64,000 nucleotides of DNA. It comes from Desulfococcaceae bacterium. GTDB lineage: Bacteria; Desulfobacterota; Desulfobacteria; Desulfobacterales; Desulfococcaceae. The translations under genes were made by a program, and so were the position numbers. Location: assembly GCA_050180235.1 (NCBI GenBank), contig JBFXEJ010000017.1, forward strand, positions 4,595 to 68,594, given 5' to 3'. Below, piece after piece: positions 7,654 to 58,545 of the stretch; positions within the stretch are counted from its first letter, which is position 1; the number at the start of each line of letters is the position of its first letter. Under the pieces are notes generated by a model, which saw only the letters and a program-made list of their open reading frames with translations, was not told where the DNA came from and did no database searches.

Positions 7654-7839
7654 TTGGCTAACCAGTTATTATCCGGATCATGATAACATTCGATTCTGCA
7701 TATTATCATGATCTGTAAAAATTCATCCTGAGATTTTTACCATATCATACAATAGAGATCAACAGAATATGAGTATTCCAGATCATCAGATTCAACTTTG
7801 ATAATGCCGCAGAAGATCAAAAAATTCCATCACACTAAG

Positions 7840-7900
7840 GAAAGCCGGAGTTCAGAACCGTCAGAAAATGCTGAATTCCGGCTTTCGCCGGAATGACGGT
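7840..7900. repeat. REP-like family C unit
   Basis: aaagccggagttcagaacc...gaattccggctttcgccggaatgacgg. Confidence 0.65.
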
Positions 7901-7966
7901 CAGATCTAATAACTGCCTGATTTTTGGAAAGACTGCATAACATCACTTATAACTTATAAATGGATA

Positions 7967-8431
7967 TTATTTCTCTGACCTGTGATTTATCTGATTCACA
8001 GAATTCTGGTTCGACAGTTCGGAAAGGAGATCTCTGATGCTCCAAATCTTTACTCCATGACGTTCCATAGCCGAACGCAGTTCATCATCTGCCTGCAAAT
8101 CCTTATCCCCGGAAACGATGGCATCTGCCTGCCCGTCTGTCGCAGTTGCCAAAACCGGATGGTCTTTGGGATCACGGCATAAAGGCGGAACTGTTTGCAG
8201 ATTTACCATTTTTCCGCGCTGATACAACTGTTTCAGCAGAATTTCCGCATGATCCTGATTGATATATTTCTTCAGACGCGAACGCTGCCGGACTTCATCA
8301 AATTCATCAATAAGTGGCTGACTGACAATCACTATGAACTTGTTTTCCCTCCATGCCTGCAAAACAGGCAGTGCAGAACGTCCACCAGGCAATGCACTGA
8401 TCCATATATTTGTATCAACAACTGTTTTCAT
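7967..8431 (-). CDS. PIN-domain toxin (type II TA, PIN_3-like)
   Basis: MKTVVDTNIWISAL (conserved Asp) and ...ATDGQADAIVSGDKDL, typical of the PIN fold. A small upstream ORF is present. Confidence 0.8.
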   Translation of the reverse strand: MKTVVDTNIWISALPGGRSALPVLQAWRENKFIVIVSQPLIDEFDEVRQRSRLKKYINQDHAEILLKQLYQRGKMVNLQTVPPLCRDPKDHPVLATATDGQADAIVSGDKDLQADDELRSAMERHGVKIWSIRDLLSELSNQNSVNQINHRSEK

Positions 8432-8491
8432 TGCACTGCCGGTTGTCTGTGTTTTTGGCGGACAGCCTGTATTTCCTTTGCAATATCAGCA

Positions 8492-8686
8492 TCACTGATA
8501 TTTTTTTTCCTCAACAGCAGCCAACCGGACAATCAGATCATCGAGTTCAGCATCCAAATCTGTTTCAGCCAGAACCTTTGCCACCTGAATACGTGACGGT
8601 TTGTCCAGATCGCGGATGATCGCAAGCAACTGATCAAGGTTCAGGCTGACATTGGGAATTGTAATTTCTGCTGCCTGTATATTCAT
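8492..8686 (-). CDS. putative antitoxin partner of the PIN toxin (apparently truncated at an A8 tract)
   Basis: 64-aa ORF directly upstream of the PIN gene. It stops 60 nt before the toxin ATG, and the alternative frame after the A8 run reaches a TGA that overlaps that ATG. Confidence 0.5.
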   Translation of the reverse strand: MNIQAAEITIPNVSLNLDQLLAIIRDLDKPSRIQVAKVLAETDLDAELDDLIVRLAAVEEKKYQ

Positions 8687-8736
8687 TTTTCAGACTCCTT
8701 TGTATCATATTTGAGGGTGAATCAGATCAAAATGCT

Positions 8737-9483
8737 TCATGGTTTGTAAGAATTCTGCAATATGCTTTCCATTCGGGCAATATCTTCAGGCAGATCCACT
8801 TCAGGCGAATCATACTCGGTGACAATAACTTTGATTTTGTAACCGTATTCCAGTGCGCGGAGCTGTTCGAGTTTTTCAATGCCTTCCAGTTTTCCCTCAG
8901 GCAGTTTTCTGAATATATCCAGAAAAGACCGGGTATAGGCATATACACCAAGATGCTTGTATGTGTCAAACACGGCAGACGGTTCCCGTCCGAAGGGAAT
9001 GGCCGAGCGGGAAAAATACAGGGCAAATCCCTGCGAGTCAAACACGACTTTCACATCTTTGGGATTGGTGATTTCTTCGGGACGGACAATTTTGTATGCT
9101 AAAGTGCTCATGTTCAGGCCCGGATCGGAAAAAAAAGGACTGACCACCTCATCCAGACAGCGGGAATCCAGCAGAGGCTGATCTCCCTGCACATTGATGA
9201 CAATATCCTCAGGTGCAAGCCCCATCTGATGCGCGGCATCACCTGCCCGATCCGTGCCGGAGCGGTTTTCCGCAGAAGTCATCATGGCCCTGCCACCAAA
9301 GGAATGCACGGCATCCAGAATCCGGGCATCGTCTGTCGCGACCACCACATCAGTTACATTTTCCGCTTTTCGAGCGGCTTCATACACACGCTGAATCATG
9401 GCTTTGCCCGCAATCTTTGCCAGAGGCTTGCCCTTAAAACGGGTTGATCCGTAACGGGAGGGAATAATTACCGCAATTTTCAT
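8737..9483 (-). CDS. kdsB: 3-deoxy-manno-octulosonate cytidylyltransferase (CMP-KDO synthetase)
   Basis: MKIAVIIPSRYGSTRFKGKPLAKIAGKAMIQRV... with full-length KdsB-like layout, 248 aa. Confidence 0.9.
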   Translation of the reverse strand: MKIAVIIPSRYGSTRFKGKPLAKIAGKAMIQRVYEAARKAENVTDVVVATDDARILDAVHSFGGRAMMTSAENRSGTDRAGDAAHQMGLAPEDIVINVQGDQPLLDSRCLDEVVSPFFSDPGLNMSTLAYKIVRPEEITNPKDVKVVFDSQGFALYFSRSAIPFGREPSAVFDTYKHLGVYAYTRSFLDIFRKLPEGKLEGIEKLEQLRALEYGYKIKVIVTEYDSPEVDLPEDIARMESILQNSYKP

Positions 9484-10036
9484 AAAAAATAAAGCCTTTC
9501 GTTTGGTTTCAGATTTTTTCTATAATAATATCAGTCCTTACGGATTTTTTCCGTCCGTGTGTCAGACCCGAATCAACGGATTTGACCCACTGCCTTTCTT
9601 TTATTTATTTAGAAATACAACGCAGCAGTACCTGAGCAGCACTGCCAAAGATTCTTTCACTGAACATTCTGATTTTTCCTGAAATTATAACACGTCTGTA
9701 TTTATTTGTAAAGTTTAAATGTTATAAGCAAGTCAGCATAAATTTTCGGGTATAAAAAAGTTGTTTTTTAAGAGAAACCGGGTTTTCTGAAAATGCCGAC
9801 TTTTCACCAAATGACAGGATTCATCCGGTGGTTTCAGTATTTTTTAAAAAAAGATCAACTGCGGCCGCACGGGCGCTTCGGATGGGCCGGACAGCAGTCC
9901 GGAAAAATTTTAAAAAAAAAGTGCTCCCTCCGATCTCCGGAACAGTTCCTGTTTCAGAGGAACACCCGGTTTTGGAACCGGATGAACTGCGGTCTTATAC
10001 CAATTTTCTATTGAAAGTATATTTATGATTCGGTTT

Positions 10037-10080
10037 CCCACAGAGAACACAGAGAGAAAAAACCACAGAGAACACAGAGG
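10037..10080. repeat. family E repeat (cacagagaacacagag type)
   Basis: cccacagagaacacagagagaaaaaaccacagagaacacagagg. Confidence 0.65.
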
Positions 10081-10396
10081 AAATAACTCACTTTATTGTA
10101 TAAATTCAATAGCGAATTGGTATTACTCCGGTAAAAAATCAGATCAGGTACGGATTTGGCCGGGGGCGGAACGCCGGACACGGCGTACTGCCGGGATCGC
10201 CTTCGGAAACTGTTCAGCGGAATGCAGCCTGTTTTTATATTCGTTGACTGTAAGCTCCTTATCTGATAGTGCTCCAAATCCGTTGATGAATCAGGGTTCT
10301 TCCTCTCCCGAAGTGAGGAAAATTCAGAATCATCGGATTTGCAATATCCAAAGCAGACAGCAATTCATCCAATTCCGTGAAAAGGAGAAAATCCGC

Positions 10397-11191
10397 ATGA
10401 GTTTCAATGAAAAAGTCAAGCGCAATGTCGCGGCCAACTTTGATCAAAGTCTTCATATTTATCAGGAATTTGAGGAAAAACACAAGTTCTTTGCATCTTA
10501 TGCTTTAAAGATGGCAGAGGCCATAGGGATGAAGGAGGGAACATCGGTTCTGGACGTGGGCTGCGGTTACGGATTGTCCGCAGTGGTGCTCAATGCAAAA
10601 TACGGATGCCGCGTTACCGGGATTGATCTGTCTCCGGAAATGATTTCAGCGGGACAGGCTGTGGAAAAAAATGAAGAGATATGCCTGATGGTAGGGGATG
10701 GTGAAAATCTTTCACCCCTTGTCGGCGGGCGTCAGTTCGATTATGTTCTCTACAATGCCTCGATTTTTATTTTTCCTGACGCTGCCAAAGCCATTGACGA
10801 GGCATTCCAATGCCTTTGTCCCGGTGGCAAGATAGCGTTTTCTTACTATCCGCAGTTGCTCGGGGAAGAGGAGGCAGATCTGTTTGATCTCGCTTTCAGA
10901 CGCATGGGCGAACCTCTGCCCAAATTTCGCGTTATTACGGATTACCCGGCTGCCTGCAATGCGCTGGAAAATCGCTGCGGCAATATCCGTCACCATCGCT
11001 GGACACAGCCTCTGCATATCGGTTTTATGCAGGATTTCTTTTCCATTCCGGCCCAGTCAGCTTCCCTGTTCCCCGGACGCGGCTATGAGGAAAGACGCGA
11101 TCTGGTCAAACAGCTTTTTGAAACCCTGAGGGATTTGGAAGGCAGCGGACAGGTTGTCTGGCGTATGGCTGAAGGCAGCAAAACACCCTGA
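10397..11191 (+). CDS. class I SAM-dependent methyltransferase
   Basis: SAM motif I VLDVGCGYGLS. ATG at 10397 is preceded by AAAGGAGAAA. The upstream part of ORF 10025..11191 runs through repeat DNA. Confidence 0.8.
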   Translation: MSFNEKVKRNVAANFDQSLHIYQEFEEKHKFFASYALKMAEAIGMKEGTSVLDVGCGYGLSAVVLNAKYGCRVTGIDLSPEMISAGQAVEKNEEICLMVGDGENLSPLVGGRQFDYVLYNASIFIFPDAAKAIDEAFQCLCPGGKIAFSYYPQLLGEEEADLFDLAFRRMGEPLPKFRVITDYPAACNALENRCGNIRHHRWTQPLHIGFMQDFFSIPAQSASLFPGRGYEERRDLVKQLFETLRDLEGSGQVVWRMAEGSKTP

Positions 11192-11342: not shown

Positions 11343-12554
11343 TCAGGAATTGCCGCGGCTCTCCCGCCCGGCTGTCACAATATCACGTTCTGCTGCCCAT
11401 TGCCCGATGTCCTCTTTTTTAATGGCAGCAGCCATAAGCCGGGGAAAAAGATCGGGCGTGCAGGCAAACGCGGGCGCGCCCAAAGCAGACATCTTTGCCG
11501 CCAGTTCTTTATCGTAAATGGGCGCTCCTTCGTCACTCAGCGCCAGAAGGGTAATGAACTGAACACCGGAAGCAATAAGCTCCTGGGTGCGGCTGAGCAG
11601 CTCTTGGGCAACTCCGCCTTCATACAGATCGGAAATGAGAACGAAAATGGTATTTCGCGGCTCCCGGATCAGGGTCTGGCAATAGGCCACAGCCTTGTTG
11701 ATAAAAGTGCCGCCCCCAAGCTGTGTTCCGAACAGCACTTCAACCGGATCATCAAGTTTGTCTGTGAGATCCGCCACAGCCGTGTCAAAGACAATCAGCC
11801 GGGTGGAAACTGCGGGCAAAGTGGCCATTACTGCGCCGAATATGCTGGAATACACCACTGACGAGGCCATAGAGCCGCTCTGGTCAATGGCCAGAATAAT
11901 GTCACGCTGGGTGCGCCGGGACTTGCGTCCGAACCCGATTAAGCGTTCCGGGATAATGGTTTTATATTCCGGCTGATAATGGTGCAAATTGGCCCGGATG
12001 GTTCGGTGCCAGTCCATTTCCGGAAGACGCGGCCTGCGGTTGCGGACTGCCCGGTTCAGAGCTCCGGTCACTGCGGTTTTCATGGGCTCTTCCAGCTTTT
12101 TCATCAATTCGTCAACCACCCTGCGGACTACGGCACGCGCGGTTTCTTTAGTGCGGCTGGGAATCACACTGCTGAGGGCAATCAGACTGGCCACAAGGTG
12201 AACATCCGGTTCCGCAGCTTCGAGCATTTCCGGTTCCAGTAACATGCGCTGCAAATCAAGACGCTTGAGCGCATCCTGCTGCATGACCCGGACTATGCTT
12301 TTGGGAAAATATTTGCGTATATCTCCCAGCCACCGGGAGACCGTGGGGCTTGAAGCTCCGGAACCGCCGCGCCCCTGACGCCCCAGACCGCGTTCCGGGC
12401 CCGCGTCGTATAATGCCTGAAGGACCAGATCCATAGCGGTATCCTCACTGCTCAGGCCGATACCGATACCGTCCGCTTCTTCACCGCCGAGAATCAGGCG
12501 CCAGCGCCGCTGGCGTTCTTCCGCTGGTTCAGAATGTAAGGAAGTGTCTGACAT
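11343..12554 (-). CDS. VWA domain protein (YehP-like)
   Basis: 403 aa with MIDAS motif AIDQSGSM. Last gene of the SWIM/AAA/VWA operon. Confidence 0.85.
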   Translation of the reverse strand: MSDTSLHSEPAEERQRRWRLILGGEEADGIGIGLSSEDTAMDLVLQALYDAGPERGLGRQGRGGSGASSPTVSRWLGDIRKYFPKSIVRVMQQDALKRLDLQRMLLEPEMLEAAEPDVHLVASLIALSSVIPSRTKETARAVVRRVVDELMKKLEEPMKTAVTGALNRAVRNRRPRLPEMDWHRTIRANLHHYQPEYKTIIPERLIGFGRKSRRTQRDIILAIDQSGSMASSVVYSSIFGAVMATLPAVSTRLIVFDTAVADLTDKLDDPVEVLFGTQLGGGTFINKAVAYCQTLIREPRNTIFVLISDLYEGGVAQELLSRTQELIASGVQFITLLALSDEGAPIYDKELAAKMSALGAPAFACTPDLFPRLMAAAIKKEDIGQWAAERDIVTAGRESRGNS

Positions 12555-49048: not shown

Positions 49049-51046
49049 ATGAATTCATTTTCCCATCTGCCACTTTTCAAAGAAGACAATCTTCTGAAAA
49101 AATTTGAGGAAATCCATGATTATATTTATGCCAATGACGGACTTTCCCCGCAGCAGGCTTTGGAGGAAATTGTCAAAATTCTGTTTGTCAAAATTGCTGA
49201 TGAAAATGCAGATCAGAAGCAGTTCACAATTTCCGAAAAGGAATGGAACAGCCTGAAACATGGGCAGAAAATTCCGGATTTTGAAGATCGGATCACAAAA
49301 CTGTTTGCACAGACCGTTCAGGCATATCCGGACATATTTTCAGCAGATGAGCGCATCCGTCTTTCCCATACAGTTTTGGCTTTCACTGTCAGCAGACTGC
49401 AGAATATTTCTTTTGTCACTTCTTCACAGGATGCAAAAGGACTGGCTTTTCAGAAATTTCTCTCCCATCAGGAAAAACACGGCAGAGGGCAGTTTTTCAC
49501 ACCTGAACCTGTCATAGATTTCTGTGTGCAGATGATACAGCCCGATCTGTCTGAAAGCATTGTAGATCCGGCCTGCGGCACCGGAGGTTTTCTGATGTCC
49601 GCTCTGAAATATCTCAAAAACAGGTTTGCAGATGCAGATGTATCTGAGATAATTTCAAAAAATCTCTGGGGATTTGATATAAACAGGAGCATTGCCAGAA
49701 TTGCCAGAATGAAACTTCTTTTGGAGGCAAATGCAAAAACCAATATCTTCTGTGCCAATTCTCTGGATAATTTGGAGAATCTCTTATCAGCAAATCCTGA
49801 AGGTTTTGACATTGTGCTGAGCAATCCGCCGTTTGGAGCAGGCGGAAAAATTGCGGACAGGCAGATACTTGAAAAATTTGATTTGGGATACAAATGGTCA
49901 GAAACAGAAAATCAGTACATCAGAACAAAGAAAATCAGCACAGGTCAGGCTGCGGAAATTCTCTTTGTTGAACGCTGTCTGCAGGTGCTGAAACCGGGCG
50001 GAAGAATGGGCATTGTCCTGCCCAACGGACATTTTGAAAATCCTTCTTTGGCATATATGAGATTTTATATTAAGCAAAAAGCAAAAATACTGGCAATTGT
50101 AAATTTGCCGCAGGAAACATTTATTCCTTTTGGAACCGGTGTAAAAACATCTTTGCTTTTTTTGCAGAAACAGGGTATATATCCCAAAAAATCTTATCCT
50201 GTTTTTTTTGGAAAAATAAAAAAACCGGGGTATCAGGGCAATAAAAATGCAAGTCCTGTTTACCGGAAAGACAGAAACGGACAAATCATAAAAGATGAAA
50301 AGGGACAGTCTGTTTTGGATGAGGATTTCAGTCTGCTTGTCAGGGAGTACAAAAATTTTCTGGAAGGAAACAGAAAGGAAACCCAAAATTCCTTTTCCCT
50401 TGATTCTGATGAACTGAAGGGCCGTTTTGACTATGATTTTTATGCACCGGAAAATAGAAGATTAATAGCTGATTCCAGTGCAGATAAAACCGTCCGGCTG
50501 GGTGATGTTTGTGAGATTGTAAAAACAAAAAGTGAAAAACTGAAAAAATCTGATCTGGCCGTTGAATATATAGAACTTTCTGATATTAATACAAACGCTT
50601 TTGAAATTATCAATACAGCAGATTATTATGTGCATGAACTGCCCAGCCGTGCCAGTTACGAAATCCGAGCGGGGGATATTCTCACCGCGATTGCAGGCAA
50701 TTCTGTGGGAACAAAAAAACATGCCACAGCATTGGTCACAGAGGAATTTGAAGGCTGTATCTGTTCCAATGGGTTCAGAGTCTTGCGAAATTTCAGAATT
50801 GACATATATTTTATGATGTATTTTCTGAAATCAGATTTGTTTCTGCGTCAGATGCTTATGTACCGCACTGGTGCGGCCATTCCCAATGTGTCAGACAAAG
50901 ATTTGGCAAACATTCTGATTCATCTGCCGGATGACAATATCATAAAGCAGATAAGCGAGAAAATGAAAAGTTCTTTTGAACTCCGGCACGCAGCAAAAAG
51001 AGAAATGGAAAGTATTCCGGCAAATATTCTGCAATGGCCGAACTGA
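49049..51046 (+). CDS. N6-adenine DNA methyltransferase fused to an HsdS-like target-recognition domain
   Basis: Motif I DPACGTGGFL and motif IV NPPFGA. The C-terminal ~200 aa resemble a single type I S-subunit TRD (VRLGDVCEI...GAAIPNVSDKDL). Visibly AT-rich. Confidence 0.85.
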   Translation: MNSFSHLPLFKEDNLLKKFEEIHDYIYANDGLSPQQALEEIVKILFVKIADENADQKQFTISEKEWNSLKHGQKIPDFEDRITKLFAQTVQAYPDIFSADERIRLSHTVLAFTVSRLQNISFVTSSQDAKGLAFQKFLSHQEKHGRGQFFTPEPVIDFCVQMIQPDLSESIVDPACGTGGFLMSALKYLKNRFADADVSEIISKNLWGFDINRSIARIARMKLLLEANAKTNIFCANSLDNLENLLSANPEGFDIVLSNPPFGAGGKIADRQILEKFDLGYKWSETENQYIRTKKISTGQAAEILFVERCLQVLKPGGRMGIVLPNGHFENPSLAYMRFYIKQKAKILAIVNLPQETFIPFGTGVKTSLLFLQKQGIYPKKSYPVFFGKIKKPGYQGNKNASPVYRKDRNGQIIKDEKGQSVLDEDFSLLVREYKNFLEGNRKETQNSFSLDSDELKGRFDYDFYAPENRRLIADSSADKTVRLGDVCEIVKTKSEKLKKSDLAVEYIELSDINTNAFEIINTADYYVHELPSRASYEIRAGDILTAIAGNSVGTKKHATALVTEEFEGCICSNGFRVLRNFRIDIYFMMYFLKSDLFLRQMLMYRTGAAIPNVSDKDLANILIHLPDDNIIKQISEKMKSSFELRHAAKREMESIPANILQWPN

Positions 51047-51305: not shown

Positions 51306-52190
51306 ATGGAAAAAATTTCTCAATCCCGCGGAACCCGCTGGCACCGTCTTCTGGGAACCCTGTTTGAGGAACTCCTGTCCCCGACCGGAGTTTCCGTGTT
51401 CACGGATTTTCCTGTGATGGCAGAATCTCCGGAAGCCGACATTCTTCTGCTCCGGAAAGAGCCGGGAAAATGGACTGCTGAACAGGCAGCCTTTCTGCCT
51501 GACGGCATACGGGACAGCAGCGCGGCGCATATTCTCATTGAATTCAAATATACAGAATCCGTGACAGAGGACACGTTCCGGCAGACAACCGGATATGAGT
51601 TTTTTTACCGGCATGCCCATAAACTGAGAGAGTGTGACATACAGTTTTTTGTTATGAGTGCAAAGACACCGCAGGAAACACTGCTGAAGAGATTCGGATA
51701 TTCATCTGGAGAAAAACAGGGAATTTATCTGAGTGACAACCCTATCCTGCGGATATTCCCGCTGCTGTGCCTCAATGAACTTAGCAAAGAGATGCATAAC
51801 GCATTTGTAAAATGCTTTGCCAGCCGGAGGCAGGAGAAGACAGTCGCGTTCAATGCCATTATGCAGGAATGGATAAAAAAACTGAATCCGGAATTGCAGA
51901 GGTTCATTGACGGTCTTCTGTGCTACTGGTTTTCAGAGAAAGGAGAGCATATGGAAACACTGGAACTGACCCCTGAAAAAGTCAAAGAGATGGGAAAAGT
52001 GTGGGCAGATATGGTTCTTTCCGGCATGTCTGTCGATGATGTGCTGGCCAGATTCAGCCCGGATGATGTTCTGTCCCGGTACAAACCGGAAGAACGTCTG
52101 AAAGGAATCGGAACTGAGGAACGCCTGAAAGGACTTTCAGAGGCGGAAATAGAAGCCTATCTTTCTGAAATCAGAAAGAACAGGAACTGA
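51306..52190 (+). CDS. PD-(D/E)XK nuclease-fold protein (Rpn/DUF4351-like)
   Basis: Candidate catalytic D (PEADILLL) and ExK (LIEFKYTES). Repeat-rich helical C-terminus. Family call tentative. Confidence 0.5.
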   Translation: MEKISQSRGTRWHRLLGTLFEELLSPTGVSVFTDFPVMAESPEADILLLRKEPGKWTAEQAAFLPDGIRDSSAAHILIEFKYTESVTEDTFRQTTGYEFFYRHAHKLRECDIQFFVMSAKTPQETLLKRFGYSSGEKQGIYLSDNPILRIFPLLCLNELSKEMHNAFVKCFASRRQEKTVAFNAIMQEWIKKLNPELQRFIDGLLCYWFSEKGEHMETLELTPEKVKEMGKVWADMVLSGMSVDDVLARFSPDDVLSRYKPEERLKGIGTEERLKGLSEAEIEAYLSEIRKNRN

Positions 52191-52475
52191 GCGGTTTTCA
52201 GGGAAAGGAGATCCATTCTGTGGAAACACTGGAACTGCCCCCTGAAAAAGTCAGGGAAATGGGAAAGATTTGGGGGGATTTGATCCTTTCCGGAATGTCT
52301 GTTGATGAAGCTCTGGCCCGATTCAGCTTGGATGAGATTCTGTCCTGTTACAAACCCGAAGAGGTTCTGTCCATCTATAAACCCGAAGAACGTCTGAAAG
52401 GACTTTCAGAGGAAGAAATCGAGGCTTATCTTTCTGAAATCAGAAAGAACAGGAACTGACCGGTTTTTCAGAGAT
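51928..52475 (+). repeat. tandem duplication (~265-bp unit, two copies plus the start of a third)
   Basis: Unit boundary GGTTTT(T)CAG(A/G)GA occurs at 51928, 52193 and 52462. Copy 1 is the 3' end of gene 51306..52190. Confidence 0.8.
52220..52459 (+). pseudogene. duplicated 3' fragment of the preceding PD-(D/E)XK gene
   Basis: The 79-aa GTG-initiated ORF is a diverged copy of the last ~80 aa of 51306..52190 (METLELTPEKVKEMGKVW vs METLELPPEKVREMGKIW; both end EIEAYLSEIRKNRN). Confidence 0.5.
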
Positions 52476-52555: not shown

Positions 52556-52621
52556 GCCGGAAAGTTTTTGATCTGCTGTTTGTTCATAATGCTTACACTT
52601 TTTCAGAAAAAGGAGAAAAAA

Positions 52622-53005
52622 ATGGATCCCGTTACCGCAGGCATTCTTGCTGCCATAGCCGCAGGCGCGACACAGGTGGGTAAATCAGCAATTGTTGACA
52701 GTTACACCGCACTGAAAAAAGTGATTGGGGACAAATACAGAAAATCCCAGCTTCCGGCAGTGGTGAACAGTCTGGAAGCCATGCCGGATTCCAAAAACCG
52801 GCAGGGAACTGTACAGGAGGAGATTCAAATCACCAAAGCAGACAAAGACCCGGAGATTCTCAAGGCTTTGGAGAATCTTGCGGAAGCACTGAAAGCCTCA
52901 CCCGAAGGACAGAAAGTGATCAGCAAATACAATCTCAATATTACGGGCAGCAAAATTGGTGTGGTGGGTGACAATGTGAAAATTGAAGGCGGAATGCACT
53001 TTTAA
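52622..53005 (+). CDS. small Bell/HeLo-like putative membrane-targeting effector with C-terminal amyloid-like motif
   Basis: ATG 52622 is preceded by AAAGGAGAAAAAA. N-terminus MDPVTAGILAAIAAGATQVG; C-terminus NLNITGSKIGVVGDNVKIEGGMHF matches the N-terminus of the next gene. Confidence 0.7.
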   Translation: MDPVTAGILAAIAAGATQVGKSAIVDSYTALKKVIGDKYRKSQLPAVVNSLEAMPDSKNRQGTVQEEIQITKADKDPEILKALENLAEALKASPEGQKVISKYNLNITGSKIGVVGDNVKIEGGMHF

Positions 53006-53014
53006 GGAAAATGT

Positions 53015-55069
53015 ATGACCCAAATATCTGATGCGAAAATCGGGGTGGTGGGAACTGCGCATATTGAAGGCGGAATGCACATTTATGGCAATAAACCCCA
53101 GAATCCGCCACTGCACCTTCCCCCGCGTTCCAAACATTTTACAGACCGCAAAGCAGAACTGGAAAAACTGCTTGCAGAACTGCAGCCGGGTCATACGGTC
53201 ACGCTTTGCGGCCCCGGGGGTATCGGCAAAAGCGCACTCGCGGCTGAGGCCCTGTGGCATCTGACATCAGGTACTTCGCCCCCTGCGTGTTTCCCGGACG
53301 GTGTAATCTGGCATGATTTTTACCGGGAACCCAAATCAGAAACCGCACTGGAACACATTGCCCGGTGTTTTGGGGAAGAACCGGTTCCCACTGCCCTTAC
53401 TGCTGCCGGGAGAGCTTTGTCCGGCAAAAAAGCGGTGCTGCTGCTTGATGGCACGGAAGACACAGACAATCTTCCCGCAGTTCTGTCCGTCAGCGGCAAC
53501 TGCGGTGTCATTGTCACCAGCCGCAGACGCAGGGATGCAGAAGAGAAAAGAGAGGACATCCGGCCGCTGGAAGCAGATGAGGCTGTGAAACTGCTCCGGG
53601 CATGGTGCGGAGATCAGGCAAAAGAGGAAAATCCGGCCCGGCAGATTTGCGAACGGCTGGGCGGACTGCCCCTTGCTGTGCGTCTGGCAGGCCGTTATTT
53701 AAGTCAGACCGGTGACAGCGCGGCTGAGTATCTGGAATGGTTAATCTCCTCACCGTTTGAAGCCCTTGATCCGGATAAGGAACATCACCGGCTGGAAAGC
53801 GTACCCTGGCTGATAGAACACAGCCTGAAGCAGGTGGATGAAACAGCCCGGCAGATTCTGGCGGTATGCGGCATACTGGCTTTCGCTCCTTTTTCCAGAC
53901 AGGTGATGGAATTCGCGCTGGAAGACAAATCCGCTGTCCGTGTAGGACTCAATACCCTTGTCAACTATGGTCTGTTAATCCGCATAGCAGATCGTTGGCA
54001 GGTGTCCCATGCCCTGATTCATACTTATGCAAGAACCCGTCTTCATGTTCTGGAAGAGACGGAAAAAAATCTGATTTTGTATTACCTTGCCTTTGCTGCC
54101 GTGCAAAATGAGGTTATGGCAGAAGGCTTTGCCAGGCTCAACCCGGAACGGCCCCATATCCTGTCCCTGCTCCACAGCACTTCTGATGACGCAAACGCCC
54201 TGAACCTGCTTTGGGCAATGGAAGAATACTGCACCTGGCAGGGCCATTACGCGGAATTCCGCTCGGCTGTGCTTCACTGCATCCGTGCCGCGCAAAAACT
54301 GGAAGATCATCATCAGGAGGCCAACTGCATAAAGGCTCTGGGTGATGTCCACATCATGCTTGCCGAATATGAACAGGCCCGGAAATGTTATGAAGAGGCA
54401 CAGCCCGTTTACGCACAGATCGGAGCCTTCTTGGGGGAGGCCAACTGCATAAAGTCTTTGGGCGATGTACACAGTTATCTTGCTGAATATAAACAGGCCC
54501 GGAAATGTTACGAAGAGGCGCGGCCCGTTTACGCAAAGATCGGAGCCCTCCTGGGGGAGGCCAACTGCATTTATTCTCTGGGCGATATCCACAGTTATCT
54601 TGTAGAATGTGAACAGGCTCGGAAATGTTACGAAGAGGCGCGGCCCGTTTACGCAAAGATCAGGGATCGTCTGGGGGAGGTCAACTGCATAAAGGCTCTG
54701 GGCGATGTCCACATCAGGTTTGCCGAATATGAACAGGCCCGGAAACGCTACGAAGAGGCACGGCCCGTTTACGCAAAGATCGGAGCCCGCTTGGGGGAGA
54801 CCAACTGCATAAGGGCTCTGGGCGATGTCCACATCATGCTTGCCGAATATGAACAGGCCCGGAAATGTTATGAAGAGGCAAAGCCCGTTTACGCACAGAT
54901 CGGAGCCCGCTACAGTGTCGCGTTTATACTGGCGTATCTGGGACTGACATATAAAGGATTGGGAGAACTGCAAACCGCGCGGGAGCATCTGGAGCAGGCC
55001 ATTGACCTCTTTGAAAAGATAAAATCCCCGTATGCGGCTATGATCAAAAAATGGCTGGAGGATTTGTAA
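53015..55069 (+). CDS. NLR-like STAND NTPase: N-terminal amyloid-like motif, NB-ARC, TPR repeats
   Basis: MTQISDAKIGVVGTAHIEGGMHIYG; Walker A GPGGIGKSALA; Walker B LLLDGTED; NB-ARC GLPL motif GGLPLAV; five near-identical 40-aa TPR-like units plus a terminal TPR. Confidence 0.9.
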   Translation: MTQISDAKIGVVGTAHIEGGMHIYGNKPQNPPLHLPPRSKHFTDRKAELEKLLAELQPGHTVTLCGPGGIGKSALAAEALWHLTSGTSPPACFPDGVIWHDFYREPKSETALEHIARCFGEEPVPTALTAAGRALSGKKAVLLLDGTEDTDNLPAVLSVSGNCGVIVTSRRRRDAEEKREDIRPLEADEAVKLLRAWCGDQAKEENPARQICERLGGLPLAVRLAGRYLSQTGDSAAEYLEWLISSPFEALDPDKEHHRLESVPWLIEHSLKQVDETARQILAVCGILAFAPFSRQVMEFALEDKSAVRVGLNTLVNYGLLIRIADRWQVSHALIHTYARTRLHVLEETEKNLILYYLAFAAVQNEVMAEGFARLNPERPHILSLLHSTSDDANALNLLWAMEEYCTWQGHYAEFRSAVLHCIRAAQKLEDHHQEANCIKALGDVHIMLAEYEQARKCYEEAQPVYAQIGAFLGEANCIKSLGDVHSYLAEYKQARKCYEEARPVYAKIGALLGEANCIYSLGDIHSYLVECEQARKCYEEARPVYAKIRDRLGEVNCIKALGDVHIRFAEYEQARKRYEEARPVYAKIGARLGETNCIRALGDVHIMLAEYEQARKCYEEAKPVYAQIGARYSVAFILAYLGLTYKGLGELQTAREHLEQAIDLFEKIKSPYAAMIKKWLEDL
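54317..54916 (+). repeat. five tandem 120-bp (40-aa) TPR-coding units of very high identity
   Basis: Units start at 54317, 54437, 54557, 54677 and 54797. Example pair: EANCIKALGDVHIMLAEYEQARKCYEEAQPVYAQIGAFLG / EANCIKSLGDVHSYLAEYKQARKCYEEARPVYAKIGALLG. Confidence 0.9.
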
Positions 55070-55353: not shown

Positions 55354-55521
55354 ATGAAATACCGTGTGCTGCTTGAACAGGATGAAGACGGAATATTTGT
55401 TGTTCAGGTTCCCTCTTTGCCGGGCTGCATTTCCCAGGGAAACACCCGCAAAGAGGCATTGAACAATATCCGTGAAGCCATTTCTGTTTATCTGGAAAGC
55501 CTGAAAGCATATGATGAATGA
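55354..55521 (+). CDS. hicB: HicB-family antitoxin (orphan)
   Basis: 55-aa ORF below the track cutoff: MKYRVLLEQDEDGIFVVQVPSLPGCISQGNTRKEALNNIREAISVYLESLKAYDE. Stop overlaps the lgt start region. Confidence 0.7.
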   Translation: MKYRVLLEQDEDGIFVVQVPSLPGCISQGNTRKEALNNIREAISVYLESLKAYDE

Positions 55522-56383
55522 ATTTTGGATTTGGTGGCAGCATCTGCCTGAAAAAATAAGCCCGGTCATCTTTCAGATCGGCAGCTTCAAACTGCAGTAT
55601 TACGGACTGATGTATCTTATTGCATTCGGCATCAGTTATGCACTGGTCCTTTACCGCATACGGAAAGAGGAAAGCTTTCATATCACGGCGCAGCAGGCCG
55701 AATCCCTGACCACTGCCATGATTCTGGGCGTGATTCTGGGCGGGCGGCTGGGATACGTCATTTTTTACAATTTTTCCTATTATCTGCATCATCCATTGGA
55801 AATCTTTCTGCCCTTTGATTTTTCCAATGGCATGACCTTCACCGGCATTTCCGGCATGTCCTATCACGGCGGTCTGCTGGGCGTTGTCATTGCCTCGTGG
55901 ATATACACCCGGAAAAGCGGCATAAGTTTCCGGGAAATGAGTGATCTGTATGCGCCTGTGGTTCCTTTGGGTTACACCTTCGGGCGCATGGGCAATTTCA
56001 TCAACGGAGAACTCTACGGAAGAATAACAGATGCAAATATAGGCATGTATTTTCCCCATGCACCGGGCCCGGAACTGCGCCATCCTTCGCAGTTGTATGA
56101 AGCCTTTTTTGAGGGCATTTTTCTCTTTGTTCTGCTGTGGAGCATTCGCAAAAAAACAAACACCAAAGGCGCTATGCTGGCCTTTTATCTGATGGGATAC
56201 GGAACAGTACGCTTTTTCATTGAATACTTCCGTGAACCGGATGCGCATCTGGGATTTGTTTTTCTCTCTTTTTCCAGAGGACAGCAACTGTGTTTTCTGA
56301 TGATACTGGCCGGAATACTGATTTACGGCGGACTGCGTTTCAAAAACAATGGCAAAACCGCAGTTGCCGCAGGAAAGAGATGA
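55511..56383 (+). CDS. lgt: prolipoprotein diacylglyceryl transferase
   Basis: 290-aa polytopic protein with Lgt-like N-terminus ...FQIGSFKLQYYGLMYLIAFGISY and GRMGNFINGELYG. Confidence 0.9.
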   Translation: MMNEFWIWWQHLPEKISPVIFQIGSFKLQYYGLMYLIAFGISYALVLYRIRKEESFHITAQQAESLTTAMILGVILGGRLGYVIFYNFSYYLHHPLEIFLPFDFSNGMTFTGISGMSYHGGLLGVVIASWIYTRKSGISFREMSDLYAPVVPLGYTFGRMGNFINGELYGRITDANIGMYFPHAPGPELRHPSQLYEAFFEGIFLFVLLWSIRKKTNTKGAMLAFYLMGYGTVRFFIEYFREPDAHLGFVFLSFSRGQQLCFLMILAGILIYGGLRFKNNGKTAVAAGKR

Positions 56384-56594: not shown

Positions 56595-56861
56595 ATGATA
56601 TCCGTGAATGTGGAAAAAGCGGCCCGGACATTGCCCGGACTGATTCATCATACTCTGATGAATTGTGAGGAAACGGTTATTGTTTCCGAAAACGGGGCAG
56701 TTGTGATGATTGATCAGGCTGAGTGGGAAAATATGAAAGAAACCCTGAATCTGCTGCGGGACAGAAAATCCCTCAAAGCCCTGCTGGACGGACACAGAGA
56801 AAGAGATTTGGGACACATACCGGACAGCGTAAGTGCTGAAAAGGCTTTTTATGACTTATAA
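56595..56861 (+). CDS. yefM: Phd/YefM-family antitoxin
   Basis: 88 aa, ...ETVIVSENGAVVMIDQAEWENMKETLNLL. Overlaps the toxin start. Confidence 0.85.
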   Translation: MISVNVEKAARTLPGLIHHTLMNCEETVIVSENGAVVMIDQAEWENMKETLNLLRDRKSLKALLDGHRERDLGHIPDSVSAEKAFYDL

Positions 56862-57123
56862 AATCAACATTCTCAAAAATGCGGATGAAGATTTGGACTG
56901 GCTGAGAAAAAATGACAGAAAAAGCTACTGCAAATGTTTTGATCTTGTGAGGGAACTCATGGAAAATCCCAGAGAAGGAACCGGCAAACCGGAACGGCTT
57001 AAATATTTTGCAAAAGAGGTTTACAGCAGAAGGATTAATCAGGAGGACAGGCTGGTTTATACCATTTATGAAAATACAGGGGAAATTGATATTTCCTCAT
57101 TTCGGGGACATTACAAAAAATAA
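56851..57123 (+). CDS. yoeB: Txe/YoeB-family toxin
   Basis: GTGKPERLKYFAKEVYSRRINQEDRLVY...GHY matches the YoeB pattern. ATG 56851 lies within ORF 56833..57123. Confidence 0.85.
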   Translation: MTYKINILKNADEDLDWLRKNDRKSYCKCFDLVRELMENPREGTGKPERLKYFAKEVYSRRINQEDRLVYTIYENTGEIDISSFRGHYKK

Positions 57124-57150: not shown

Positions 57151-58545
57151 ATGAAACTCTTTTTATACAACACACTGACAAGAAGCAGGGAGGAATTCGT
57201 TCCCATTGATCCGCAGGAAGTGGGAATGTATACCTGCGGGCCTACGGTTTACAATTATGCCCATATCGGCAACCTGCGCACCTATATTTTTGAGGATATT
57301 CTCAAGCGGGTTCTCCTGTACAACGGTTACAGAGTCAAACATGTGATGAATATCACAGATGTGGGGCATCTGACCGGTGACCGGGATATGGGCGAGGACA
57401 AACTGGAAAAAGGAGCCGCACGCGAGGGAAAATCCGCGTGGGAGATCGCGGCTTTTTACACGCAGGAATTCAAAAAGGACATGAATGCTTTGAACCTGCT
57501 GGAGCCAAATATCTGGTGCCGTGCCACCGATACGATTCCCGAACAGATTGATCTGATTCGTATTCTGGAGGAAAAAGGCTACACCTACCCCACCCGTGAC
57601 GGCATCTATTTTGACACATCAAAATTCAAAGATTATACCAAACTTTCCCATCAGAATCTGGATGCCCTGCAGGAAGGCGCACGGGTGGAAAAAAACCCGG
57701 AAAAACGCAATCCCACGGATTTTGCGCTCTGGAAATTCTCTCCGGCTGATGTGCAGAGACAAATGGAATGGGATTCTCCCTGGGGAAAGGGATTTCCGGG
57801 CTGGCATATTGAATGCTCTACCATGAGCATGAAATTTCTGGGAGAGCGGCTTGATATTCACTGCGGCGGAACAGATCATATCAACGTGCATCATACCAAT
57901 GAAATTGCCCAGTCCGAAGCCGCGACCGGGAAAAAGTTCTTCAATTTCTGGATGCACGGAGCATTTCTCAACATTGAAGGCGGCAAGAAAATGGCAAAAA
58001 GCGCGGGCAATTTCCTGACGTTGGAAAACACACTGATCCGGCAGGGAATTGATCCTCTGGCCTACCGTTTTGCCGCGTTTCAGACCCATTACCGCAATCC
58101 TATGGAATATACCGCAGAATCCATGCACGCGGCTGCCAACGGACTGGCACATCTGAGAAGCCGTGCCAAAAGCCTCCGGGAGTCCGGAGACTTTTCATCA
58201 GGTCAGATCAGCCCTGAATTCAAAGAAAAATTCCTCACGGAAATCAATGATGATCTGAACATGCCCCGCGCAATGGCTGTGGTGCAGGAAATGCTCAAAT
58301 CTGATCTCAGTCCCGGAGACAAACATGCCACACTTGCAGATTTTGACCGGGTGCTGGGCTTTGATCTCGGCAAAGAGGAAAAAGAGGAAGGACTGCCGGA
58401 GGAAGTCCTGAAACTGGGCGAAGCCCGGCAGAAAGCCAGATCAGAAAAAAACTGGGCAGAATCGGATCGGCTGCGGGATGCCATCCGTGATTTGGGATAT
58501 ATGGTGCGGGATACAAAAGAGGGAATGAAGATTGACAAAATCTGA
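57151..58545 (+). CDS. cysS: cysteine--tRNA ligase
   Basis: HIGN ([10 protein letters not shown]) and KMSKS-like (KKMAKSAGN) class I motifs; 464 aa. Confidence 0.95.

Follow-up and report, generated by a model that had tools for sequence, protein, structure and literature searches.

Layout of the gene pair

The 64-kb stretch of DNA analysed here (the window), from a metagenome-assembled genome (MAG) of a Desulfococcaceae bacterium, contains two adjacent genes on the forward strand whose products share a short motif, at the C-terminus of one and the N-terminus of the other. The first gene (52622..53005) encodes a small protein of 127 residues that ends ...KYNLNITGSKIGVVGDNVKIEGGMHF-TAA (the C-terminal stretch also being given as QKVISKYNLNITGSKIGVVGDNVKIEGGMHF-TAA). 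The second (53015..55069) encodes a 684-residue NLR-like STAND NTPase, identified from the list of open reading frames (ORFs) and Pfam, that begins MTQISDAKIGVVGTAHIEGGMHIYG and is made up of the motif, an NB-ARC domain and TPRs. In keeping with the roles proposed below, we refer to them as the effector and sensor genes. A preliminary description of this DNA, made from the sequence without database searches, had reported both ORFs, their coordinates, a 9-nt gap and a number of DNA strings, and all of these were found in place.

Both ORFs are intact, and each has a ribosome-binding site. A Shine-Dalgarno-like sequence, AAGGAG (52610..52615), was read 6 nt before the effector ATG. Given this site, the effector gene is likely to start at the ATG at 52622 and not at the TTG further upstream (52502) that is given in the program-made ORF list. 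A second such sequence, AAGGAA (53004..53009), precedes the sensor ATG and overlaps the effector stop codon. The genes lie on the same strand and, because exactly 9 nt (53006-53014) separate them, they are probably co-transcribed as a bicistronic unit. Scans for promoters and terminators returned site numbers no higher than expected by chance. All features of the pair described below are on the forward strand.

The small protein belongs to the Bell family

The effector is identical to the NCBI entry 'MAG: hypothetical protein AB7S75_06885 [Desulfococcaceae bacterium]'. We found 19 homologues, and a profile built from them matched Bell-side proteins of the set published by Dyrka, Saupe and colleagues: PLS85526.1 (63.9 bits), CCI22909.1 (45.2 bits), AFR28659.1 (44.3 bits) and KZB79293.1 (38.3 bits). 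On the strength of these matches, at 38-64 bits, we assign the small protein by sequence to the Bell family as those authors define it. Its length and helical make-up agree with their definition (about 120-140 residues, with an α-helical domain).

The preliminary description had called the protein 'Bell/HeLo-like'. The profile matches bear out the first half of this label; the second did not hold, as a Pfam scan of the effector (E ≤ 1) gave no HeLo or Helo_like_N match and returned only HetE-N (PF20701; residues 1-94) at 20.7 bits (E = 5e-4), against a gathering threshold of 25 bits. The same Pfam family was matched by 11 of the 19 homologues at E ≤ 0.01 (best, 2.4e-6), and a precomputed match to it is present on 18 of them. 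Pfam scans of C-terminal 100-residue fragments from the Dyrka Bell proteins gave no match, so Bell is not equated here with HetE-N. A literature search on 'HetE-N' and PF20701 returned nothing relevant.

According to an AlphaFold2 monomer model built on the 19-sequence alignment, the effector would consist of a helical bundle (residues 1-102; 52622..52927, a range that also draws on the HetE-N match) followed by a disordered tail. Helices were predicted at residues 3-13, 23-38, 44-53, 58-71, 77-92 and 94-102, with a predicted template modelling score of 0.72. The predicted local distance difference test (pLDDT) score, averaged per 10 residues, was 81-94 in the Bell domain and below 50 for residues 108-127. 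The model and the Kyte-Doolittle scale also agree with the preliminary description in placing a Gly/Ala-rich hydrophobic helix, MDPVTAGILAAIAAGATQVG, at the start of the protein (52622..52681); its second residue is Asp. No other segment of the protein is as hydrophobic as this N-terminus, MDPVTAGILAAIAAG (Kyte-Doolittle +1.42), and residues M1, D2, A10, A11, G15 and G20 are unchanged across close homologues. A hydrophobic first helix together with Asp at position 2 agrees with the published Bell signature, in which an acidic residue occupies position 2 or 3.

Relatives of the effector are rare in genome collections: a genome search with a narrow Bell alignment found them in two species-representative genomes and one metagenome locus only. 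The full 19-sequence alignment offered no stretch conserved enough for a family-wide locus search.

The sensor is an NB-ARC/TPR protein

The sensor contains an NB-ARC NTPase domain at residues 50-251 (53162..53767; PF00931, 54.3 bits against a cutoff of 23.5, E = 1.5e-14). Within it lie a P-loop, GPGGIGKS (residues 66-73; 53210-53233), a Walker-B-like sequence, LLLDGTED (residues 142-149; 53438-53461), and a GLPL-type sequence, GGLPLAV (residues 216-222; 53660-53680). These three signatures and the TPRs had been recognized in the preliminary description, and both Pfam families, NB-ARC and TPR_12, pass their cutoffs.

The TPR sensor region spans residues ~388-681 (54176..55057), a range taken from an AfsR TPR-region match. 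TPR_12 matched it over five stretches (120.9 bits, E = 2.6e-35). At its core is a tandem array of 5.0 near-identical 120-bp units, each encoding 40 residues (54316..54911; TRF period 120, 85% matches). In a related locus, L003, with about 91-95% DNA identity to the window across the aligned locus, the array (7695-7928) has 2.0 copies and the protein 564 residues, as compared to 5.0 copies and 684 residues in the window. High internal repeat identity and copy-number change are typical of fungal and bacterial NLR sensor domains. Differences among the 40-residue units are concentrated at a few positions.

The two proteins share a terminal motif

The effector-side motif, SKYNLNITGSKIGVVGDNVKIEGGMHF, occupies residues 101-127 (52922..53002). 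It is kept in homologues down to 57% identity, in which it takes the form ISKYNLNIxGSxxGV[VI]GDNAxIxGG[IM]HF. The sensor-side motif, ISDAKIGVVGTAHIEGGMHIYG, identified by alignment to the effector tail, occupies residues 4-25 (53024..53089). The last 30 residues of the effector and the first 30 of the sensor aligned with a BLOSUM62 local score of 56. Shuffles of these termini scored 19.9 ± 4.2 (maximum, 49), and none of 20,000 reached the observed score. Across all 684 residues of the sensor, it is the N-terminus that best matches the effector tail, and a six-frame scan of the window found the motif at these two termini only. The resemblance of the two ends, which the preliminary description had noticed by eye, is thus far beyond chance, and the motif is strictly terminal.

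An identical 18-nt run, ATTGAAGGCGGAATGCAC, occurs in both motif-coding segments (52982-52999 and 53063-53080) and includes five codons that have synonymous alternatives.

The pairing is conserved and cassettes are exchanged in concert

We then examined related loci. Both motif-bearing termini are kept in the near-identical syntenic loci L003-L005 and L007. More importantly, the same motif occurs on both partners in six independent loci, namely the window, L010, L011, L014, L015 and L016, each significant against shuffles; L011 and L012 were counted as one. Outside the window, these pairs scored 69-86, as compared to about 16-22 for shuffles, and in no pair did any of 5,000 shuffles reach the observed score. 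In L010, from Desulfosarcina ovata, the effector tail ends ...SEVGVIGDHAHIEGGIHFNRK at the stop codon and the sensor is a NACHT protein with the N-terminus MADKRKDKTTDVKNAQIGVLGDNTHVEGGIHFHH.... The effector tail and sensor N-terminus also both belong to the motif family of the window in L011/L012 and L016, from metagenomes, and in L015, from the cable bacterium Ca. Electrothrix. In L014, also from a metagenome, one Bell gene is accompanied by two sensors, one nSTAND5-like plus HEAT and the other NB-ARC/TPR, and looks like a single effector wired to two receptors. Homologous loci thus keep the paired termini. The private recent local duplication that the preliminary description had named as a possible source of the similarity is contradicted by the presence of the same motif in independent, diverged pairs.

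The related loci differ in how their genes are arranged. In L014 (646-6608), the Bell gene is followed by the nSTAND5-like sensor with a separate 768-residue HEAT-repeat protein, and then by an NB-ARC/TPR gene split into several ORFs. In L011 (4205-6401) and L012 (2098-4294), a stand-alone motif ORF of 37 residues (MKPLSQIGVIGDYAHIEGGIHYSNYKIPLPPKQPLKN) lies between the Bell gene and a P-loop/TPR ORF. This ORF is identical in the two assemblies, which are independent, and could be part of a split NLR or a free motif peptide. The D. ovata locus (L010; AP021876.1, 6001-9395) has a Bell gene cut to its C-terminal 63 residues beside an intact motif-Metallophos-NACHT gene and a separate FGE-sulfatase gene. 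L013 (6001-8732) encodes a motif-bearing N-terminus and then NACHT in fragments. L001, which carries a Bell homologue of 57% identity, has no motif-bearing NLR adjoining it and has instead a 985-residue protein with N-terminal HetE-N followed by NACHT and FGE-sulfatase (7874-10831), and then a Metallophos-NACHT-FGE-sulfatase protein (11583-12393).

One locus, L006 (6001-9197), encodes an orthologous pair whose ends differ from those of the window. Its Bell domain and NB-ARC domain are 75% and 78% identical to their counterparts, but at its termini identity to the window drops to 31% and 24%. The L006 termini nevertheless match each other, ...FNIQAENIQGVVQAEKIDNLTQNF on the effector and MSEYRFSGGNIKGPIQAENIEKVEQRY on the sensor (the latter also GNIKGPIQAENIEKVEQRY), with a score of 53 as compared to 17.9 ± 3.7 for shuffles. 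To judge from these alignments, both ends have been exchanged in concert for another matched motif. It would be difficult to account for such joint replacement if the module could work with ends that do not match. In a contig labelled Ca. Moduliflexus, a Bell relative of 34% identity and its partner, a NACHT/FGE-sulfatase protein, share yet another matched motif, the third and a weaker one. Similarly, NB-ARC orthologues share a constant linker/P-loop region, PLQRPPRxEHFTDRxxEL...LQPGxVVTLCGPGGIGKSALAAEA, ahead of which lie at least six motif types, BASS2-like ones included. The variety of motifs preceding a constant region indicates that the N-terminal cassette is modular.

The motif joins several effector types to several sensor types

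To determine how widely the motif occurs, a 34-position profile of it was run with HMMER against 1.84 billion representative proteins. The census returned 164 clusters at E ≤ 1e-3, 12 of them at E ≤ 1e-10, and 145 extracted motif segments gave the consensus LSKYNIDARGSQIGVIGDNAHIEGGIHFH.

In the best 150 matches, the motif was N-terminal in 56, C-terminal in 46 and internal in 30; the remaining 18 were short fragments. Its position went with different domains. Among 28 long proteins with an N-terminal motif that were scanned with Pfam, NB-ARC was found in 10, NACHT in 5 and AAA_16 in 12, with TPR or WD40. Sensor N-termini elsewhere that carry the motif of the window belong to NB-ARC, NACHT and nSTAND proteins. 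The 38 scanned proteins with a C-terminal motif included HetE-N (13), EAD7 (2), trypsin-like peptidase (2), bDLD1 (1), COR-B (1) and guanylate cyclase (1) domains. The motif ends ...GGIHFG(K/E)-stop in effectors, and reads ...GGIHFH before a Pro-rich linker in sensors. Most of the 27 scanned proteins with an internal motif have EAD7, bDLD1 or HetE-N, then the motif, then STAND, caspase or phosphoesterase parts. By their domain order, these proteins appear to be natural fusions of both partners in which the motif has been kept in the middle. Taken together, the domain assignments point to a widespread module that joins several effector types to several STAND sensors. Five individual proteins (P0095, P0098, P0100, P0111 and P0171) have an effector-type domain (bDLD1, EAD7 or HetE-N), the motif and a long STAND-type region in a single chain.

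All ten motif clusters whose source was looked up consist of metagenome proteins. The named source records are Desulfococcaceae and Desulfobacterales MAGs, Desulfosarcina ovata, Ca. Electrothrix, Chloroflexota/Anaerolineae MAGs and one Gammaproteobacteria MAG; among them, the motif was confirmed in Desulfobacterota records only. In viral collections, tblastn found no match in INPHARED phages, and two degenerate DNA patterns had no match in IMG/VR contigs. A word-index search with the motif profile returned seven short proteins only, and a literature search for the motif strings a single, unrelated paper.

The motif falls outside BASS1-9

We compared the motif with the published BASS motif families using the supplement of PMC8086366, which provides sequence sets for BASS1-10 and, in a README, the BASS number of each named cluster. 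A one-sixth nr70 sample (182 sequences) and seven BASS2 sequences, 189 in all, served to build profiles. BASS10 was represented by one sequence in the sample and the comparison by profile therefore covers BASS1-9. With none of these profiles could 15 motif sequences be told apart from 3,000 shuffles. The highest partial scores came from BASS3, with 15.0, 13.4 and 12.3 bits, two above and one just below the decoy maximum of 12.5, and from BASS4, with 11.8 bits against 9.4 for decoys; BASS2 reached at most 10.1 against 12.6. No published BASS file contains any of the strings EGGIH, EGGMH, KGGIH, GVIGD, GVVGD or IGVVG.

In the reverse search, the motif profile was run against the published sets (decoy maximum, 9.5 bits). 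The best match was a pair listed as 'class not assigned', AFR28659.1 (...ATKYQVVVSGGKVGIVGDHGHVTVN, 26.0 bits) and AFR28658.1 (10.6 bits). One BASS2 sequence (14.6 bits) and PIB05176.1 (12.4 bits) also exceeded the decoy maximum. The BASS3 sequences were the next-ranked group, at 9.0 to 5.7 bits, all under that maximum. Visual comparison gave a gap-free alignment of BASS3 sequences, among them AKYTVDAREAKGLQIGDHNTQTNTF and AKYTVDAREAKGLQIGD..., with the first half of the motif (KY-x-[VI]-x-A-...-G-[VI]-x-[VI]-G-D). The last third (IEGGIHF) does not look like RHIM; it resembles the end of BASS2 (...DVHGGIHF). The motif differs from RHIM (PF12721) and BASS3 at the core, which in those families is [IV]-Q-[IV]-G; that of the window reads I-G-V-[VI]-G-D, with Val at the Gln position, and gave no RHIM match in Pfam.

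As judged by these profile comparisons, the motif lies outside BASS1-9 as defined, and is kin to sequences that the authors of the dataset left unclassified. The suggestion in the preliminary description that the motif might represent a new family is therefore only partly upheld: it fits none of BASS1-9, and their files lack its diagnostic strings, but it has a clear relative among the unassigned pairs and a half-likeness to BASS3 and BASS2. A further family, BASS11, is described in a recent report as having a conserved Asn at its centre (Bab N100, Agp N12) and a TPR-GreA/B-C-PIN sensor, and is reported beside EAD7, NACHT and NB-ARC domains (10.1101/2024.11.07.622273). Compared by description only, the motif differs from BASS11 in that its consensus, LSKYNIDARGSQIGVIGDNAHIEGGIHFH, lacks an invariant Asn and the sensor of the window is NB-ARC/TPR, with no GreA/B or PIN match. 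The two may nevertheless be related, given their common EAD7, NACHT and NB-ARC neighbours, a comparison that is likewise by description only.

On balance, we lean towards regarding [SA]KY[NQ][IV]x[AI]xx[SA]Q[IV]GV[IV]GDxA[HK][IV]EGGIHF as an undescribed BASS family, with a BASS3-like first half and a BASS2-like last third. It would act as an interchangeable plug connecting multiple effectors (Bell, EAD7, bDLD1, trypsin-like peptidase, caspase and TIR-like) to multiple sensors (NB-ARC, NACHT and nSTAND, with TPR, WD40 or HEAT). Cassettes would be exchanged in concert on orthologous partners, and in some loci one effector would serve two sensors. Its sources would be Desulfobacterota, cable bacteria included, and related uncultured lineages.

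Genomic neighbourhood

Upstream of the pair, an N6-adenine methylase fused to a type I specificity domain (49049-51046) has no nuclease match. It is followed by a 294-residue ORF (51306-52190) that has no Pfam match and is 86% identical to a 330-residue ORF at the same place in L003. A 79-residue ORF (52220-52459) is a tandem partial duplicate, with 75% identity, of the C-terminus of the 294-residue ORF. Downstream lie a HicB-like antitoxin gene (55354-55521), the housekeeping gene lgt (55511-56383), a Phd/YoeB toxin-antitoxin pair (56595-57123) and a second housekeeping gene, cysS (57151-58545). A Uma2-family gene present in L003 is absent from the window, and a relative has a TIR-NACHT gene near the pair. 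Judged by gene content, the neighbourhood looks like an accessory-gene island; it fits a defence island without proving a defence role.

Comparison with characterized systems

The gene pair is probably a bicistronic Bell/BASS-NLR module of the type defined by Dyrka, Saupe and colleagues. As in their 2020 set, a collinear NB-ARC/TPR gene lies within 10 nt of the effector gene and starts with the motif of the effector, the motif is rich in Gly, Val and Ile, and the Bell domains are homologous in sequence. The pair also has the shared motif of about 25 residues and the recurrence across independent loci. The published set is drawn mostly from Actinobacteria and Cyanobacteria, whereas the present host is a Desulfococcaceae MAG (Thermodesulfobacteriota). 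In that study, BASS1 and BASS3 were found to form fibrils and prions (10.1101/2020.01.06.895854). The one related bacterial system with a demonstrated function is Bab/Agp of E. coli ECOR25 (BASS11), which mediates phage-triggered, motif-dependent abortive infection with relocalisation to the membrane (10.1101/2024.11.07.622273). Its effector, too, is small and Bell-related, starts with a hydrophobic helix and ends in a motif that recurs at the N-terminus of the adjacent sensor. BASS11 is described as four short strands parted by glycines, and the motif of the window can be read in the same way. The sensors differ, being TPR-GreA/B-C-PIN in Bab/Agp and NB-ARC/TPR in the window. The locus is thus a canonical example of a class that was defined in 2020 and, with a different sensor, received functional validation in 2024.

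Two further comparisons are instructive. In HET-S/NWD2 of Podospora anserina and other fungal signalosomes (HRAM, sigma and PP), the genes are adjacent and an N-terminal motif on the NLR templates the C-terminal motif of a helical effector that targets membranes; templating in the window is proposed by analogy. The sensor repeats of HET-S/NWD2 also have high internal identity and variable copy number. The fungal system differs in having a NACHT/WD40 sensor and two pseudo-repeats on the effector, as opposed to NB-ARC/TPR and a single motif copy in the window, which moreover has no HeLo or HeLo-like Pfam match and a bacterial host. The relation is one of analogy, not family membership. Avs/AVAST and bNACHT systems resemble the pair in having a STAND NTPase, a C-terminal repeat sensor, an N-terminal output element and a locus with restriction-modification and toxin-antitoxin genes. 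They differ in that the effector of the window is separate and recruited via a short motif instead of being fused, and the pair has no Avs or bNACHT match in PADLOC.

Proposed mechanism

Amyloid formation, templating, membrane attack, the trigger and the biological role are proposed here by analogy with BASS1/BASS3, Bab/Agp and HET-S/NWD2. In the proposed mechanism, the NB-ARC/TPR protein would act as the sensor, with a ligand binding to its variable TPR array. Binding would drive nucleotide-dependent oligomerisation, gathering the N-terminal motifs (...KIGVVGTAHIEGGMHI...) into a cross-β fold. This fold would template the same motif at the C-terminus of the 127-residue Bell protein. Conversion of the tail would then free the helical bundle, with its hydrophobic N-terminal helix, to attack the membrane and kill the cell. 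Such a switch would most probably serve abortive infection, or else regulated cell death of some other kind.

Several observations weigh against an amyloid-signalling Bell/NLR module. The HetE-N score of the effector falls under the Pfam cutoff. A Foldseek search of the Bell model against the PDB gave no match (best E = 3.2) and thus no fold-level link to HeLo, MLKL or Bab, and a sequence-profile search of PDB sequences gave nothing better than E = 0.05. In PADLOC-DB 2.0, the effector had no match and the sensor matched generic TPR models only, with no system-specific model. The motif is low in Asn and Gln relative to classical BASS motifs, and the 18 identical nt in the two motif-coding segments may reflect gene conversion between the ends of the module rather than selection. 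Decay is seen in several relatives: the Bell protein is truncated in D. ovata, and the NLR is split in L011, L013 and L014. In a covariation test within the motif family, partners were no more alike than non-partners (0.639 vs 0.617, p = 0.28); pairing specificity is visible between motif families, not inside that of the window. Finally, the preliminary description had held the in vivo function of such bacterial pairs to be essentially untested. This no longer applies to Bab/Agp, which confers abortive infection in E. coli, but it stands for Bell/NLR pairs, whose function is called still open (10.1101/2024.11.07.622273).

Alternative explanations

The role of the module is the point on which a rival reading fares best. 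Instead of antiphage defence, amyloid signalling might bring about cell death linked to development or kinship in a multicellular or filamentous bacterium, the role originally suggested for Bell/NLR pairs. Both Bell domains and BASS pairs are reported to be largely confined to multicellular bacteria. Consistent with this reading, the Desulfococcaceae include the filamentous genus Desulfonema, the motif pair of the window recurs in cable bacteria (Ca. Electrothrix), and relatives are found in the contig labelled Ca. Moduliflexus and in Chloroflexota. The failure to find the motif in INPHARED and IMG/VR and the lack of a PADLOC defence-system match point the same way. However, a restriction-modification methylase and toxin-antitoxin modules lie beside the pair, with a TIR-NACHT gene near it in a relative, and Bab/Agp, the sole tested Bell/BASS system, is antiphage. 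Variation in TPR copy number is, in addition, what would be expected of a sensor under diversifying pressure. We therefore consider a developmental role unlikely, though with perhaps one chance in a few of being correct.

A second alternative retains the module and its death or defence logic but makes the motif a non-amyloid homotypic adaptor. It would attach the effector to the oligomerised sensor with fixed stoichiometry, by β-strand addition or as a small β-sandwich, and without self-propagating templating, as in death-fold or EAD adaptor pairs. The census gives this some footing: the motif sits in the positions of EAD7 and bDLD1 adaptor domains and sometimes beside them, including within single fused chains, and its high conservation (...QIGVIGDxAHIEGGIHF in 145 sequences) is closer to that of a folded interface than of a loose amyloid motif. 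The scarcity of Asn and Gln and the lack of pair-specific covariation are also as a folded adaptor would predict. Yet the motif agrees with BASS motifs of demonstrated fibril formation and prion behaviour (10.1101/2020.01.06.895854) in how long it is, in lying at protein ends, in its hydrophobic pattern punctuated by Gly, in being disordered in the monomer model and in gene layout. Its part similarity to BASS3, BASS2 and an unassigned BASS pair, and its legibility as four BASS11-type short strands parted by glycines, also favour amyloid signalling. An adaptor of this kind thus seems rather improbable.

Thirdly, the resemblance of the termini could be functionless, either a trace of local duplication or gene conversion or part of a decaying remnant. 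The 18-nt run shared by the two motif-coding segments and the truncated or split genes of several related loci are what such a history would leave. It is very hard to reconcile, however, with a motif that is found on both partners in six or more independent loci whose sequences have diverged and whose sensors differ in type, that recurs in 164 clusters with a strong bias to protein termini, and that was replaced jointly at both ends in L006. The two ORFs of the window are, moreover, intact and have ribosome-binding sites. We give this explanation little credence.

Finally, the possibility that the effector gene encodes a precursor peptide, with the NB-ARC/TPR protein as an accessory of FxSxx-COOH- or HaaT-type maturation of a ribosomally synthesized and post-translationally modified peptide, prompted by NCBIfam matches of the sensor to FxSxx_TPR (131.7 bits) and HaaA_phane_TPR (157.7 bits), was rejected as scarcely credible: these scores are far under the curated cutoffs (300 and 1125, respectively), the HaaT match lies wholly in the TPR region while FxSxx_TPR also spans the NTPase, no radical-SAM or other maturase gene is nearby, and the small protein is predicted to hold a conserved folded domain of ~100 residues.

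Significance

Bell/NLR pairs are the presumed bacterial counterparts of the cell-death switches formed by HET-S/NWD2 in fungi and by RHIM proteins in animals. The locus described here is a compact and intact example, with proteins of 127 and 684 residues in one operon, and is accompanied by 145 aligned motif sequences and at least six natural pairs. Related loci supply two natural controls, an orthologous pair with a different matched cassette and relatives with a different TPR copy number. What is new is a large, well-defined motif family with many effector and sensor partners, the concerted swap of cassettes, and the presence of the system in Desulfobacterota, cable bacteria included. While it introduces no new principle, the pair extends the known range of Bell/NLR systems to sulfate-reducing and cable bacteria and shows that many combinations of effector and sensor can be served by one motif.

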